A stretch of 64,000 nucleotides of DNA, from NCBI GenBank assembly GCA_963749495.1, contig CAVVMW010000014.1:448001-512000 (forward strand), in the 5' to 3' direction. The notes beneath the pieces were generated by a model. It did not search any database. It was given only the letters and a program-made list of their open reading frames with translations, and was not told the origin of the DNA. The DNA is from an uncultured bacterium. GTDB taxonomy: Bacteria > Verrucomicrobiota > Verrucomicrobiia > Limisphaerales > UBA8199. A program made the position numbers and the translations under genes. Of the stretch, positions 1,352-62,123 are shown one piece after another (within the stretch, counting starts at the first letter, position 1; every line of letters starts with the position of its first letter).

Positions 1352-4300
1352 GATGGGGTTGGGTTGGAGGGCGCCTGCGGCTCGCCGTTGGTGTCACGGT
1401 CCAGGAATATCATTCTCAGCGCCGGCACGGCGACGAGCAGCATAAAGGGCCCGACGAGCATGCCCCCAACGATCACTGTGGCCAGCGGGCGCTGCACCTG
1501 GCTTCCAATGCCGGTGGAAATGGCTGCGGGAAGCAGGCCGATGCACGCTGAAAGCGCCGTCATCAGCAGGGGGCGCATGCGCGTCGTGGCAGCTCGGAAC
1601 ATCGCATCCATGGGCGCCAGGCCGCGCAGCCTCTCGTGGTTGTAATAGGTGATCATCAGGATGCCGTCCATGACCGAGACACCGAAGAGCGAGACGAAGC
1701 CGATGGCGGCGGAGATGCTGAAAGGCTGCCCGGTAAGAAAGAGCGCGAGCACGCCGCCCACTACGGCGAAGGGGATGCCCGCCAGCGCCAGAAGGGAGTC
1801 GCGCAAGTTATTGAACAAGCTGTAGAGCAGCCCGGCAATCAACAGCAGGCTGACCGGCACAATGATCGCCAGGCGTTTCCTGGCCTTTTGAAGGTCTTCG
1901 AACTCGCCGGCCCAAATGAGCCGGTATCCAGACGGGAGTTTTACATTCCTGCCGATCCGTTCTTGCGCTTCCGCAACGGTGCTGCCAAGGTCGCGTCCTC
2001 TAACGCTGAACTTGACCGGGATGAAGCGCTGCACGCTCTCGTGGTAAATCCAGGCCGCTCCGTCATCCACCGTGATCGCCGCCAACTCGCTCAATGGAAT
2101 GTAGGCGTTGCCGCCAGTGCTGGTGGCGCAGGCCACCTTGATGTTGCTGATCTTTTCGACGCTGTCCCGGTATTCAGGTGTGTAACGGACGACCAGGTCG
2201 AACTGCCGATCGCTTTCCAGCACTGTGGTTGCCGCCGCTCCGCCCAGCGCGGCCTGAATCACGGAGTTAACGTCGCCCGAGTTGAGACCGTAACGCGCGG
2301 CTTTCTCCCGATCCACCTTGATATTCAAGTTCGGCTGCCCCAGGACCGGGAAGATCCCCAAATCGGCAACGCCGCGAACCTGGCTCATTTGATCCCGGAC
2401 CTGCGCAGCCAGCGCCGTCATCGTTTCCAGATTGGGGCCGACGATTTTGATCGAATTGACGGCTTTGACGCCTGAGATGGCCTCCTCGATGTTATCTTGT
2501 ATACATTGAGAGAAGTTGAAGGTAACCCCCGGCACCTCGTTCTGAAGCTCGGCGTTAATCTGCTCGGTCAGTTTCTCCTTGGTCATGCCCTTGCTCCATT
2601 GGTCCAGCGGCTTGAGCACCGCGAACAACTCGACGTTGGAGAAGGGTGATGCATCGCTGCCGTTGTCGGGCCGGCCATGCTGAGAGGTCACAGTAACGAC
2701 CTCCGGATATTTCAGGAGAATCAAGCGCATCTTTCTCGCCGCGGCCTCGCCGTCCTCCAACCGCAGCGTAATCGGCATCGAGCAGCGAATCCAAAAATTG
2801 CCCTCTTCCAGGTGCGGGAGAAACTCGCTGCCGAGCCGGGGTATCAGCAATGCGGCGCCAGCGATAAAAACGATTCCAGCGACCGCCACGGCCGCGCGGT
2901 GGGCCAGGGCGAACCGCAGCGCCGGATCGTAAGAGCGGTGCAAGAAGCGGACGAGGATCGTCTCGGCTTCCGTCACGTGTTCGGAAAGCAAGAACGTGGC
3001 GAGCACCGGGCTGACCGTGAAGGTGGAAATCAAGGCCCCCGCCAGGGCATAGCCGTAGGTGCGCGCCATGGGGCCGAAGATCGCGCCCTCGACGCCCTGC
3101 ATGGTGAAGAGCGGCACAAAACCGGCCACGGTAATCAGCGCCGAGAATAGCACCGCCTTATCCACCTGCATCGCGCTGATCAGGATCAGCCGCAACCGAT
3201 CGGTCCAGCCATGAGCCGGGGCGCTATGCGACGACATGCTTGTTGGGTCCGGCCCAAAAAAGCCCTCCGCCAACCGCCGGAGCAGACTCTGCCTGTCTTC
3301 CGGGGATCTCTGGAAATTCCGGAATATGTTCTCGACCAGGATCACTGCCGAATCGACGATGATGCCGAAATCAACGGCGCCGATCGAGAGCAGGTTGGCG
3401 CTCTCGCCCTGCAACACCAGCAGGATCAGGGCAAAGAACAGAGCAAACGGGATGTTGAATCCGACGATGAGCGCGCTACGGAGGTTGCCCAGGAAAATCC
3501 ATTGGATCAGGAACACCAGCAGGCATCCGAAAATCAGATTGTGCAACACGGTGTGCGTGGTGACCTCAATCAATGCGCGACGATCATAGAAGGAAACCAC
3601 CTTGACTCCGGGCGGCAGGCTGCCGTCGTGGTTGAGCCTGTCGATTTCGGCTTCGACCTTTGGAATCATGTCGTGCGCATGCTGCGTCCGGTTCATTACC
3701 ACGATGGCCGCCACGGCGTCGTCCTCCCGGTCGTGGCCCCATACCCCGAGCCTCGGCCTGTAGCCCACATCCACCTTCCCGACATCCTTTACCTGCACGG
3801 GGACGCCGTTCACCTGGGTCAGGACGACGTTTTCGATGTCACCGACCTTGTAGCCCTTCGTCAAATCATCAGCACCGCCGTCATCCATGAGTCCGACGCC
3901 GCGAATATTGATGGATTGCTGGCCAATGCCGATTTCGCGTCCGCCGACGTTGAGGTTGGCGTTGCCCAAGGCGGTCAGAATTTGCGGCACGGTGATCCCG
4001 AAGGTTTCCAGTTTGTGCGGATCGACCTCGACGTGGAATTGCTTGGTTGGGCCGCCCCAACTGTTGATGGCCACGATGCCGGGAATGGTTAGCAGCCGGC
4101 GCGCGATAATCCAATCCTGGACCGTGCGCAGATTGATGATTCCGAAATGTCTGGGACCGACCACCTGGTAACGGTAGATCTCACCCGTCCCGCTGTTCTG
4201 CTGAATGCTCGGCACCAGGTTACCCGGAAGGTTCACATTCTGCCCCAACGCTATGGCCGCTTGACTATAGGCAAAGTTATAGTCCACGCCATACTTGAAG

Positions 4301-27089: not shown

Positions 27090-27120
27090 AACTCACTACC
27101 GTTGCGAACAATATCGTTTC

Positions 27121-27187
27121 GGTAGGAGTCGTCAGCCCAAGGGCGGTTTGCCCCGAACCCGTTCGGGGGCAGGCAAACTCCATTGCC
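27121..27187 (-). ncRNA. Fluoride (crcB) riboswitch, internal copy
   Basis: GGCAATGGAGTTTGCC...AAACCGCCC-TT-GGGCTGACGACTCCTACC; matches the crcB consensus, with pseudoknot GGAGU/ACUCC. Confidence 0.9.
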
Positions 27188-27223
27188 TTTGACACACTAT
27201 CACCCGTTAGCGGCGGACAGGAA

Positions 27224-30243: not shown

Positions 30244-30273
30244 AACTCCCACCTCGCCACATCCTGTGGCGCT

Positions 30274-30349
30274 GGTAGGAGTCATCAGCACTGAAACCGT
30301 TCAGGCGGTTTTCCCCGAAGCCCTTGAGGGGAAGGCAAACTCCATTGCC
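30274..30349 (-). ncRNA. Fluoride (crcB) riboswitch, leader of the antiporter operon
   Basis: GGCAATGGAGTTTGCC...AAACCGCC...GCTGATGACTCCTACC; a putative TTGCCA-17 bp-CAGAAT promoter lies just upstream. Confidence 0.92.
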
Positions 30350-30442
30350 ACAGTAATTCTGGCCCGCAATGCCCACGCTGGCAACTAAAATCGTGCCGGC
30401 CTGGTAATCGGTCAGTGAAGGCGGGAACGGAGTCCCCTGCGA

Positions 30443-32432: not shown

Positions 32433-32462
32433 AACTCCCACCTCGCCACATCCTGTGGCGCT

Positions 32463-32538
32463 GGTAGGAGTCATCAGCACTGAAACCGTTCAGGCGGTTT
32501 TCCCCGAAGCCCTTGAGGGGAAGGCAAACTCCATTGCC
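32463..32538 (-). ncRNA. Fluoride riboswitch, third (duplicated) copy
   Basis: Reads identical by eye to 30274-30349. Confidence 0.88.
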
Positions 32539-32644
32539 GCAGTAATCTTCGCGCCGAATGCCCGCGCTGGCAACTAAAATTGTGCTGGCGTGTGCGCATG
32601 GGGCGCATTCGCGAGTGCTTGGTGCTAAGGTTGGCCGCGCGACC

Positions 32645-42009: not shown

Positions 42010-43313
42010 TGAAGGTCTAATGGTGGATCGCTTTGCCAGCTATAAGTTTTTGGCCGTGGCGCTCCTGTTGGCTTTTTGCTGGGCGCATGTGCGGCGGGAT
42101 TTTCTGATGTTCCGTCCGGGGGCCGATGCGGCGGGACAGGGCTGGGCCGATCAGTGGATCGAGGGTATTGGGCAATTATATCGGCTCAATGAGGCGCGGC
42201 TCGAAAGGGGCCGGGATTTGAAGGCCCCGGCACTTCCCGCCTCGTTTGTGCGGATGGACCTGGAGCGGATGAAGAGGCCCGCATATGCCCAAAGCCAACA
42301 GGCCCTGGTCCAGCAGGTGGCGAGCCTGGCTCAGGCCCGGGATGCGCAACTGGCCCAAGCGGGGCTGCCGTCCCCGCGCCGGAAGATTCTGGAAAGTCTG
42401 CTTGCAGCCCATAAGGCTGCCAGTCCAGCCGGTGAAAGTCCGGCGATGGTAAATGACGATAAGCCATCCAGTCATAACCGACGTGGGTATTCGGGGTGAC
42501 CCGGCCCACGCAAGCCCGGTTGTAAAAGCCCTGGCCGAAGCGGGGCAAGCAGCACCTCCAGGCCGCAGCATTAAGCGAACGTTGCAGCTTCGTTACACAG
42601 CCCACGTGTTTCGGAATCGTGGGGGCTTGTGGTTGCCGAGCCAATGCAGATATGGCGAAGGCAGCACCAACGACCAAGGAATCGTCGAGCGCAGTCGTTG
42701 GAACCACCGGAGTACGGGCGACGGCATGGGGTGGAAGGACTGGCAGAGTAAATTGGGGACCCTCTGCGGCTGGCGGGCTGGTCCCGCAGCCTGGCGGAAT
42801 AATGCATAAGCCGCTGGGTGGCCAACAGAGGCGCAGATGTGGCCATAGTAAGCGACGAGCCGACCGGACAGCACAACCGGTTGGGGAGCCAAGGGCCACT
42901 GGACCCGCGGTCGTGGTCAGAAGTTCTCGGTGCCGCTTGGACGCAAGTCCGACTACGGAACAAACGCCGGGGACGGAGATACCGACAGTGACGGCCTATA
43001 AGCGGGCGATGACACGCCCGCGAAGGTGGCCGTGGCGTCAGGCGGGTTTGAAGCCGGTACTGGGGAAACCCGCCGTACGGAATTTTAGAGGGGGCAGAGG
43101 AAACGAAGTGGATGGCCTGATGACCGTTTGCCACGATGCCCGAAAGGGCCGACACACTGGAAGTCATTGGCCTAATCATGTTCGCGCCTCTGCCCTACTC
43201 GATGGGAACATTGGGCCGGGTTGACGCTGTTTTTGGAGCATCCGGGGATTCCGTTGGACAACAACGGGGCGGAACGGGCCGGGCGGCCCGCGGCGGTGGG
43301 GCGCAAGAACTAC
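42010..43313 (+). mobile_element. IS66-family TnpC fragment interrupted by a group II intron
   Basis: LMVDRFASY...CWAHVRRDF; after the intron EHWAGLTLF...LDNNGAERAGRPAAVGRKNY. Confidence 0.85.
42402..43203 (+). ncRNA. ORF-less group II intron, copy 1 (802 nt)
   Basis: Domain V AGCCGGTACTGGGGAAACCCGCCGTACGG; domain VI ends CCCTACTCGAT; removing it restores the IS66 reading frame. Confidence 0.88.
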
Positions 43314-44100
43314 TCCTGCCGCTGGGCCTGCTTTTCTTCGTACTCCTCCTGCTGCGCCGCCGCCATCTCTTTGGCCCGCTCCTCAATAACCTGCCGAGCT
43401 TGCTTCAACGCCGCCACCCGCTTTTCCCGCCGCGCCAACTCGGCCGGAATATCCAGAGTCTCCTCGGCCTCCTTTGCGTCGGCTTGCTCGGCCCGCCCCA
43501 GCAACTCCTTCACTTCCAATTCCAACTGCTCGATCATCTCTCCAGCCCGCTGGTAACTCACGGCGGCATGCTTGCTGGCATTGGCCTGAATTTTGGTCCC
43601 GTCCACACTCACGGCTCCCACTTTGCTCAAGTGCAACTCCTGCGCCAGTTGCAGCACGCTCACAAAGGCCGCCCGCAACGCAGCCCCATTGACCACCCGG
43701 AACTCGCAGATCGAAGAATGATCCGGATGGAGATTGGCGCACAGATACCGCACGGCCACGTCGTTGTAGGTGGCGGCTTCGATCGTCCGGGAGCCAAACC
43801 GGCCGGTGGCGTAACAGCAAATCAGCAAAGCCAGCATCATCGTCGGCGGGTATTGCTCACTGCCAGTGCCACGGTCGTTGACGTGGAAGTGGGCGGTCGG
43901 GATCTGCTCCACCGCATCCACGATGAAATGAACGATATGGTCCTCGGGCACCCACTCGCGCAGATCGCAAGGCAGAAACATCGGCGTCTGCCGGTCCAAG
44001 TTCACAAGACGTGCAGCCATGGTGATCCGATCCCCTCCGGCCCGCATTTGTTCAATTTATTTCAAAATATTTTCGCTCCCCTAAGTCCGACAGGCTGCTA
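43310..44100 (-). mobile_element. IS1182-family transposase, 5' part (CDS from 44020) with left end
   Basis: DRQTPMFLPCDLREWVPEDH, YPPTMML, PDHSSI, VDGTKIQANASKH; end motif GCAGCCTGTCGGACTTAGG. Confidence 0.82.
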
Positions 44101-61324: not shown

Positions 61325-62123
61325 ATCGAGTAGAGCAGAGGCGCGAACATGATTAGGCCAATGACTTCCAGTGTATCGGCCCTTTCGGGCATCGTGGCAA
61401 ACGGTCATCAAGCCATCCACTTCGTTTCCTCTGCCCCCTCTAAAATTCCGTACGGTGGGTTTTCCCCAGTACCGGCTTCAAACCCGCCTGACGCCACGGC
61501 CACCTTCGCGGGCGTGCTACCGCCCGCTTATAGGCCGTCACTGTCGGTATCTCCGTCCCCGGCGTTTGTTCCGTAGTCGGACTTGCGTCCAAGCGGCACC
61601 GAGAACCTCTGACCACGACCGCGGGTCCAGTGGCCCTTGGCTCCCCAACCGGTTATGCTGTCCGGTCGGCTCGTCGCTTACTATGGCCACATGTGCGCCT
61701 CTGTTGGCCACCCAGCGGCTTATGCATTATTCCGCCAGGCTGCGGGGCCAACCCGCCAGCCCCAGAGGGTCCCCAATTTACTCTGCCAGTCCTTTCACCC
61801 CATGCCGCCGCCCGTACTCCGGTGACTCCAACGATTGCCTGCGACGATGCCTTCATCGTTGGTTGTGCCTTCGCCGTTTTCGCACCGGTTCGGCAGTCAC
61901 AAATCCCACGAATCCGGAACCCGTGGGTAGCGTAACGAAGCTGCAGCTTTCGCTTTATGCTACGGCCTGGAGGTGTTGCTCGCCCTGCTCCGGCCAGGAC
62001 TTTTACGACCGAGCTTTCGCGGGTCGGGTCGCCCCTTCCCGTGTCGGTTATCACTGTATGGTTCATCGTCAGTTACCATCGCCGGACTTCCACCGGCTGG
62101 ACTGGCAGCCTTATGGGCTGCGA
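61325..62123 (-). ncRNA. ORF-less group II intron, copy 2 (799 nt)
   Basis: Colinear with 42402-43203; near-identical domains V/VI; 5' end TCGCAGCCC, 3' end CTACTCGAT. Confidence 0.87.

Follow-up and report, generated by a model that had tools for sequence, protein, structure and literature searches.

The locus raises the question of what kind of element interrupts an IS66-family transposase gene in this DNA, and how such an element could have moved while encoding no reverse transcriptase (RT). The DNA is a 64,000-nt stretch (hereafter the window, meaning the whole of that stretch) of contig CAVVMW010000014.1 from an uncultured bacterium of the Verrucomicrobiota (Limisphaerales, UBA8199), and the element occupies 802 nt of it. 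An initial annotation, made from the letters alone, had described a group II intron devoid of an open reading frame (ORF-less) and with a 5' end other than GUGYG. We confirmed that the element is real and that this earlier reading was correct in the main; the insert matched the Rfam domain I model RF02003 and starts with UUGCA. The initial annotation had not recorded that the copy is a divergent member of a multi-copy family, that its domain VI is enlarged by an insertion, or that the host IS66 gene is a truncated fragment. The element is probably a IIB-like group II intron that belongs to the Rfam D1D4-4 lineage and is ORF-less and non-autonomous.

An ORF-less insert in an IS66 transposase gene

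The insert and its surroundings comprise the following features.

42402-43203, + strand: 802-nt predicted group II intron without an ORF (type 1 of family A), start UUGCAG, end GAU
42020-42401, + strand: 5' exon, a fragment of an IS66-family transposase (Pfam PF03050, DDE_Tnp_IS66, E=1e-8, profile 131-192) with its N-terminal part missing
43204-43319, + strand: 3' exon, the IS66 transposase continued (PF03050, E=4.5e-10, profile 238-274), cut off near 43310-43320
43310-44047, - strand: transposase ORF of the DUF772 type (PF05598, E=6.7e-10), which abuts and truncates the IS66 fragment; context, outside the intron

The 802-nt length, the TTGCAG start and the AT end given by the initial annotation could be read directly: the insert starts with TTGCAG... 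at 42402 and ends with ...CTACTCGAT at 43203. The junctions read ...GGAAGATTCTGGAAAGTCTGC/TTGCAGCCC ... CCCTACTCGAT/GGGAACATTGG..., the slashes standing between 42401 and 42402 and between 43203 and 43204. When the flanks were rejoined by a script without the insert, the product read ...RKILESL-R-EHWAGLTLFLEHPGIPLDNNGAERA in frame, and it aligned without gaps to its nearest homologue, L002 (...RKLLVSLQKHWLGLIVFVTHPQAPMDNN; 41% identity). Together with the PF03050 matches on both flanks, this alignment bore out the claim of a precise sense insertion whose removal restores the frame.

The frame alone is insufficient to fix the boundaries, because shifts of 1-2 nt also stay in frame and alter one residue. 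The IS66 homologues in 44 genomes of the same family are only 34-41% identical; they confirmed the spacing, with boundaries shifted by 1-2 nt being indistinguishable. Support for the exact ends came from sister copies in tandem, which are joined directly (...CTCGAT/TCGCAG...) with no spacer, and from L093, a relative in another genus, in which a 7-nt match to exon-binding site 1 (EBS1) stops exactly at the aligned 5' end. In addition, metagenome and metatranscriptome contigs were found that resemble the window only from 42400-42406 onwards and no further than 43202.

The host IS66 gene is a fragment truncated at both ends. A blastn search with both flanks against the genome assembly (11.4 Mb, 31 contigs, 88% complete) returned the locus itself only, that is, neither an empty site nor a second IS66 copy. 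Four ORFs (118-237 aa) overlap the insert; none of the four had a Pfam match at E<=0.01, and genome-wide RVT_1 and GIIM searches missed the element, in agreement with the earlier statement that it holds no RT ORF.

A family of ORF-less elements in this genome

We searched the genome with the 802 nt by blastn and obtained 16 full-length copies (query included), three copies that lack their 3' end, a 3' fragment of 153 nt and 15 weaker matches confined to the 3' domain. Type 1 is represented by the window copy only. Type 2 comprises 13 copies that are 98.1-99.9% identical to one another and 90.7-91.2% identical to type 1; all of them carry U at the first position (U1) and a domain V in which an AGC triad faces GAA. 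Two further copies, in a contig-end array, are 85-95% identical to other copies. One type 2 copy lies in the window.

61325-62123, - strand: second family member, type 2 (TCGCAG...GAT), 91% identical to type 1; RF02003 match of 66.4 bits at 61955-62099

This copy (-) is preceded by a doubled gtattccgc, and several other type 2 copies have the same flanks. The sequence downstream of it presumably resembles the C-terminal half of a GxxExxY-type small protein.

The insertion motif of type 2 is a repeated gtattccgc or gtatttcgc, and where the motif is in tandem, so are the introns. Tandem arrays of 2-3 ORF-less introns, 0 or 9 nt apart, were found at C18:250431-252039, C10:537245-539537 and C22:584337-586627. 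The arrays on C10 and C22 have the same 3' truncation (element position 689) and the same flank; one of them is therefore a duplicate of the other that has since diverged. The C22 array holds decayed copies, at 85-88% identity.

The 15 weaker matches belong to a second family, B, and to a shortened form of it. Family B elements are about 820 nt long (GUGCAG...CUCGAC), match RF02003 and are ORF-less; no RT ORF was found within 3.2 kb upstream at these 15 loci. The shortened form (L054, L055, L056 and L057, at C10:59879, C18:146761, C1:798438 and C5:287400) measures about 560-610 nt and is without most of domain I, including the hairpin of the predicted EBS1 (ATAGGAA); at least four loci share the same deletion breakpoints at 88-96% identity. 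In the 5' flanks of family B (G000; L018, L020, L022, L023, L030 and L032), the 35-60 nt before GUGCAG are conserved across genomes. This stretch is GC-rich, followed by a run of A and then ...AAATTCCTAT, and to judge from its conservation it would be either a homing site or a part of the element.

Relatives in other genomes

Of 45 genomes belonging to the bacterial family, 13 contained matches to the element and 14 contained RF02003 matches; a sample of 151 genomes from the phylum gave RF02003 matches in eight. L092 (83% identity) and L093 (71%) are family A relatives from two other genera. L014/L090 (genome G011) has a canonical core and encodes an RT, and L013 (genome G002, of the window's genus) is an ORF-less derivative that retains the first 83 residues of the intron-encoded protein (IEP) at 86% identity. 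In other families of the phylum, 10 loci were examined: an RT-like ORF with YxDD follows the D1D4-4 core in seven, and the remaining three were too short.

In G002, 11 matches to the arm of domain VI or the 3' domain were listed, and the bulk of them lies at contig ends (for example, C79:1-116, C67:1-116 and C19:1-116), which points to a high-copy relative that breaks the assembly.

Target recognition by domain I

The domain I core and the predicted pairing partners are located as follows; IBS denotes an intron-binding site.

42426-42573, + strand: domain I core, Rfam RF02003 (group-II-D1D4-4), 63.2 bits (gathering score 49), E=1.7e-11 over the window, model 1-138 of 138
42396-42401, + strand: IBS1, GTCTGC, exon -6 to -1, 6/6 pairs with EBS1
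42640-42656, + strand: EBS1 hairpin, stem GCCA/TGGC with a 9-nt loop; EBS1 GCAGAT at 42646-42651
42385-42394, + strand: IBS2, GATTCTGGAA, exon -17 to -8, a 10-bp antiparallel run with EBS2
42601-42623, + strand: EBS2 hairpin, stem CCCACG/CGTGGG with an 11-nt loop; EBS2 TTTCGGAATC at 42609-42618

The RF02003 match, which answers the domain I-IV model check suggested by the initial annotation, spans 148 of the 802 nt. Both exon pairings that had been proposed were recovered. For EBS1 and IBS1, all six positions pair, and 112 of 20000 random 6-mers of the window paired as fully with the EBS1 loop region. EBS2 and IBS2 form 10 of 10 pairs (eight Watson-Crick and two G.U), with one unpaired base between IBS2 and IBS1; a run of at least 10 that was also adjacent to IBS1 arose in 28 of 20000 random 24-mers. 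The last C of EBS2 is the first base of the closing stem, so that nine of its 10 bases are in the loop.

Comparison of the copies indicated that the loops change together with the targets. The inner pair of the EBS1 hairpin is A-U in type 1 and G-C in type 2, and the loop sequence follows the target: EBS1 of type 2 is GCGAAA, and by a hand count the listed flanks end in TTTCGC (8), TTCCGC (6) or CTTCGC (1). In L093, EBS1 is ACAGGAT and lies opposite ATCCTGT (7 nt) directly before the junction. The predicted EBS1 is thus a loop that co-varies with its target in sister copies and in a relative of another genus. The EBS2 stem of L093 is CGCAC/GTGCG, a compensatory change, and compensatory changes occur in domain I across type 1, type 2, L092 and L093. 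The divergence between types 1 and 2 is greatest in the EBS loops; in the EBS2 loop, 3 of 11 positions differ, versus a 9% difference overall. On sequence comparison, type 1 is a retargeted side branch, and its sister type 2 lineage has recently multiplied.

Domains V and VI and the intron ends

The following features were assigned to J2/3 and to the 3' part of the element.

43052-43082, + strand: predicted domain V, with the AGC triad at 43052-43054, a lower helix, a UGGG/CCCG upper helix and a GAAA loop at 43065-43068
43088-43200, + strand: predicted domain VI, with a basal GAG/CUC helix, a 10-bp helix and a bulged A at 43197 (-7 from the 3' end)
42832-42838, + strand: J2/3, CGCAGAT, with a candidate gamma base A at 42835, assigned by eye from alignments

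In domain V, the CC bulge is at 43073-43074, and the loop lies 5 bp from the bulge in copies without an extra G. The AGC triad faces GAA (43080-43082), so its pairing in type 1 is C-G, G.A and A.A, with G.A and A.A instead of G.U and A.U. A group II domain V usually comprises two helices totalling about 34 nt, a 2-nt bulge, a GNRA loop and an AGC triad paired with a G.U wobble; the pairing of the triad is where the element departs from this. When all copies were parsed, AGC was opposite GAA in family A and AAC was opposite GGA in most of family B; the middle pair is therefore G.A in the former and A.G in most of the latter, purine-purine throughout. In L013, L028 and L090, AGC is opposite GUU. 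In RT-encoding introns of the D1D4-6 type from the same genome, which the Rfam model of domains V and VI (RF00029) still matches, AGC or AAC is opposite GAU, the loop is GAAAA and the bulge is CC; ORF-less elements are therefore not the only ones with a purine-purine middle pair. The domain V loop is GAAA (4 nt) in type 1 versus GAAAA (5 nt) in type 2, family B and the canonical L028. In domain V, single-base differences (a G or a T) set some copies apart, and among these differences real variants are indistinguishable from assembly errors.

Domain VI begins after a 5-nt gap. About 85 nt (43101-43186) are inserted in it; they are structured and include a GAAA-capped hairpin at 43138-43149. An expansion of about 75-85 nt is also present in the canonical L013 and in the RT-encoding L090. 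The insertion is a trait of the lineage and not damage, because the canonical relatives L013 and L090/L014 share it.

We aligned 13 sequences, namely the type 1 copy, three sister copies or fragments, seven family B elements and two relatives from other genomes. RNAalifold recovered from them domain V, the base of domain VI, a 9-bp inner helix and the GAAA-capped hairpin. In this structure, which was derived from the same 13-sequence alignment that was scored, 97.0% of 372 cells were paired and 13 of 29 pairs had changed on both sides. None of 500 shuffles scored as high, and controls with the structure slid along the alignment reached at most 50.8% paired cells and at most 6 such pairs. The basal helix of domain VI was 96.7% paired across the 13 sequences.

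The 3' end of the intron, AU, agrees with the AY consensus. In place of the 5' consensus GUGYG, type 1 has UUGCA and type 2 has UCGCA; L092, L093 and family B have GUGCA, and L013 and L014 have GUGCG. By this comparison U1 is derived, because relatives in other genera start with GUGCAG, and since it is common to types 1 and 2, it is older than their 9% divergence. A gamma-gamma' pair is described for group II introns in the available passages of PMC4238363. In our alignments, which were inspected by eye and are not a full structural alignment, types 1 and 2 combine A at 42835 with U at 43203 as the candidate pair; L093 and family B have G with C in these places. All six domains are placeable in the predicted structure.

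Reverse transcriptases in the genome and its relatives

The initial annotation had suggested a genome search for a maturase-encoding relative. The search yielded only RTs of two other intron classes: ORFs with RVT_1 and GIIM matches belong to two introns of the D1D4-7 type (550-aa and 507-aa frames) and one intact intron of the D1D4-6 type (664 aa). No endonuclease domain was matched in any of these three intron RTs. The D1D4-6-type intron is a possible lender of RT; its domain V is similar, with an AAC or AGC triad, a GAAAA loop and a CC bulge. Among the 45 genomes, IEPs at least 67% identical to that of L014 were found in G011, G023 and G001 only.

The same-family genomes G009 (88% complete) and G004 (94% complete), which hold relatives of the element, had no RVT_1 match, and G002 (94% complete) had one weak RVT_1 match of 35.7 bits, compared with 11 listed 3'-domain matches. 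These genomes are a lead and not proof of RT independence, because the assemblies are incomplete and the genomes are related.

An attempt to assign the class through the L014 IEP was rejected as uninformative, since the GsI-IIC RT and other intron RTs score similarly among the solved relatives.

ORF-less copies of the D1D4-7 type, with about 750 nt from the core to domain V, occur at L037, L038 and L039 (C15:316500-319900, C4:866700-870200 and C15:141200-144700). They coexist with the two copies of this type that encode an RT, as in the classical arrangement. Beside an RT-encoding intron, an Acido-Lenti-1 small RNA (RF01687) was matched with 37.7 bits (gathering score 37) at 2463-2521 (+) of L034, that is, at about 524062-524120 of contig C4.

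Evidence against the reading and the possibility of a dead relic

A number of results weigh against reading the element as a non-autonomous group II intron of the D1D4-4 lineage. The initial annotation had held that it would be refuted by the lack of a domain V/VI model hit, and RF00029 gave no match in 42300-43350 even at E<=10; genome-wide it gave nine matches, none of them in this intron family. U1 or the mismatched partners of the triad might each cripple catalysis. No convincing EBS2 match was seen by eye for the type 2 targets or for L093, and the EBS2 pairing is therefore supported for the type 1 copy only. The type 1 branch, with its single full copy, may be inactive. Splicing at the RNA level was not evidenced in four aligned sequencing runs, which contain intron relatives and never the IS66 exons.

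Other points concern the missing protein. A cognate, closely related IEP-encoding intron was not found in the 88%-complete assembly, whose incompleteness leaves its absence unproven. The best match of the L014 IEP in this genome is only 33-39% identical and is the D1D4-6-type IEP. When the element was compared with the nine RF00029-bearing intron loci, RT-encoding and ORF-less (blastn-short and relaxed blastn), only 18-nt matches with E of about 0.9 were obtained. No ORF remnant was seen in domain IV, unlike in L013.

Regarding the first of these points, RF00029 matched the homologous 3' stretch of L013 and L090/L014 with 40.3 and 44.3 bits over about 150 nt (the model has 77 positions). The missing match is a failure of the model and not an absence of domains V and VI, because the predicted hairpins are rightly placed, supported by covariation and homologous to the stretches that RF00029 matches in the canonical relatives. 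The model check thus went formally against the initial annotation, and hairpins corresponding to both domains it was meant to find are present with covariation support.

The runs themselves contained at most 0.17 of the words in any one case, and the four aligned ones represent intron relatives only: depth in the exon bins was 0 to 18.7 versus tens to more than 1000 inside the intron, and the IS66 exons themselves were unrepresented. The two joints seen in the runs, at 42551/42681 and 42765/42827, are internal differences of relatives (85% likeness).

Many of these points would also be expected if the element were a dead relic, decayed, immobile and unable to splice, whose odd 5' end and mispaired domain V are damage tolerated in a pseudogene. 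The missing RF00029 match, U1 together with G.A and A.A at the triad, the one full type 1 copy, the host IS66 gene truncated at both ends and the cognate RT not found in the assembly all fit such a relic, and decayed copies are known in the family (the C22 array, above). However, the 13 type 2 copies, which sit at different sites and are 98-99.9% identical to one another, all share this U1 and this domain V; these features are therefore older than the recent burst. That the middle pair of the triad is purine-purine throughout suggests that it has been maintained and has not decayed; helix pairing has been maintained by compensatory changes; and EBS1 and EBS2 of the type 1 copy still match the exon fully. 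A relic is thus unlikely.

Proposed mechanism and the source of mobility

For the intron, the following course of events is proposed. The intron RNA would have recognized the sense strand of IS66 through EBS1-IBS1 (6 bp) and EBS2-IBS2 (9-10 bp), pairings that are visible in the sequence, as is the position of the insert directly after the IBS1 match with no target duplication. Entry was probably by reverse splicing, as retrohoming or retrotransposition. The inserted RNA would then have been copied into DNA by an RT supplied in trans; the RT must come from elsewhere, because the intron encodes none. Excision may proceed by branching from the bulged A at -7, which would rejoin the IS66 frame at the RNA level. 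Splicing at this locus would be without consequence for the host, because the IS66 copy is a dead fragment. The GAAA loop of the domain VI arm might replace the usual tetraloop contact of domain VI, which is a guess.

Mobilization in trans, as the initial annotation had it, is plausible but unproven. The family did multiply, as judged by the 13 copies with 98-99.9% identity, but a closely related RT-encoding intron was not found in the assembly. A tentative extension, to which we give a modest chance, is that the lineage persists across several genera and multiplies without a cognate IEP, either borrowing the RT of an unrelated class or using no intron RT.

In the latter form, the ribozyme would reverse-splice itself into single-stranded DNA, and host polymerases and repair would finish the process. 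We know of no case of complete RT-independent mobility of a group II intron in vivo, which counts against such a course here; three intact intron RTs are present in this genome, the assemblies are incomplete and often leave repeated RT-bearing introns unassembled, and the copies could date from an era with a cognate RT. The two genomes free of RVT_1 matches (G009, with the full-length L093 and its perfect 7-bp EBS1 match, and G004) and the disproportion in G002 between 11 listed 3'-domain matches and one weak RVT_1 match speak for it, as does the protein-free complete reverse splicing into DNA in vitro that the available part of PMC11754743 describes for one IIB1 intron. On balance, RT-free mobility seems quite improbable.

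A mobile element acting at the DNA level (a miniature inverted-repeat transposable element or insertion sequence (IS) fragment) with a group II-like piece of domain I is hardly credible: although the insert sits in a nest of IS fragments and its Rfam match covers 148 of 802 nt only, no terminal inverted repeats or target duplication were seen at 42401/43204, internal loops that co-vary with the targets determine by their complementarity where the insertion lies, and six domains are placeable, V and VI with covariation support.

The reading as a non-autonomous ORF-less intron describes a family that escapes the standard domain V/VI model, has lost its first G and mispairs two of three triad positions, yet has recently multiplied and been retargeted. 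If its RNA is active, it would show how much change the active site of a group II intron tolerates, a point of relevance to the homologous U6/U2 core of the spliceosome, and it would be a compact programmable ribozyme with a target recognition of 15-16 nt. Should the driving RT come from an unrelated intron, the arrangement would be a bacterial parallel to the relationship between short and long interspersed nuclear elements (SINEs and LINEs).

Comparison with known introns

Bacterial group II introns that lack an ORF are scarce, and surveys that rely on domain V or RT would miss introns with an unusual domain V (review PMC4424553). The present family is an example of this kind. The available passages on Thermosynechococcus elongatus (Mohr, Ghanem & Lambowitz 2010, PMC2882425) describe ORF-less introns whose families differ in EBS, one of which lies in an IS element, and which are mobilized by 'driver' IEPs of other introns. 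The TeI3 introns of that study share with the window family that they are ORF-less, of the IIB type and multiplied within one genome. According to the same passages, they have clear ORF remnants, closely related IEP-encoding introns and a canonical ribozyme, unlike the window family, for which no ORF remnant or related IEP was found in the assembly and which has U1, AGC/GAA and an expanded domain VI.

The canonical D1D4-4 members L014/L090 and L013 resemble the element in overall size, in the expanded domain VI with its GAAA-capped arm and in the domain I core, which RF02003 matches with 81-91 bits. They differ in their GUGCG start, in a domain V accepted by RF00029 and in the pairing of AGC with GUU. 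By blastn, the window family is alignable with them in the 3' domain only.

Classes IIE and IIF (Nagy et al. 2013, PMC3753933) are described in the available passages as IIB-like, with small ribozymes of 450-700 nt without IEP and a 5-nt domain V loop; the criteria given there are a 5-nt zeta' loop in domain V and alpha' at the tip of the DId3 stem-loop. Type 2, family B and L028 recall these classes in their 5-nt GAAAA loop, whereas type 1 has the 4-nt GAAA. A mispaired triad, U1 and an expanded domain VI were not found in those passages of PMC3753933.

HYER ribozymes (Liu et al. 2024 Science, as cited in the available parts of PMC12990946 and PMC11754743) are likewise ORF-less, protein-free group II RNAs. 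As described there, they belong to class IIC and recognize targets of 6-7 nt, whereas the window element has EBS1 and EBS2 and a full domain VI with a branch A. Identity with HYERs or class IIC, for which a missing EBS2, short target recognition and insertion behind hairpins would be expected, was rejected on the EBS2 hairpin with its 9-10-bp match and on the target inside a coding sequence.

Other features of the window

Three fluoride riboswitches (crcB motif, RF01734) lie within 5.5 kb of one another on the - strand, at 27116-27196, 30269-30358 and 32458-32547, with 51.1, 44.8 and 43.7 bits, respectively.

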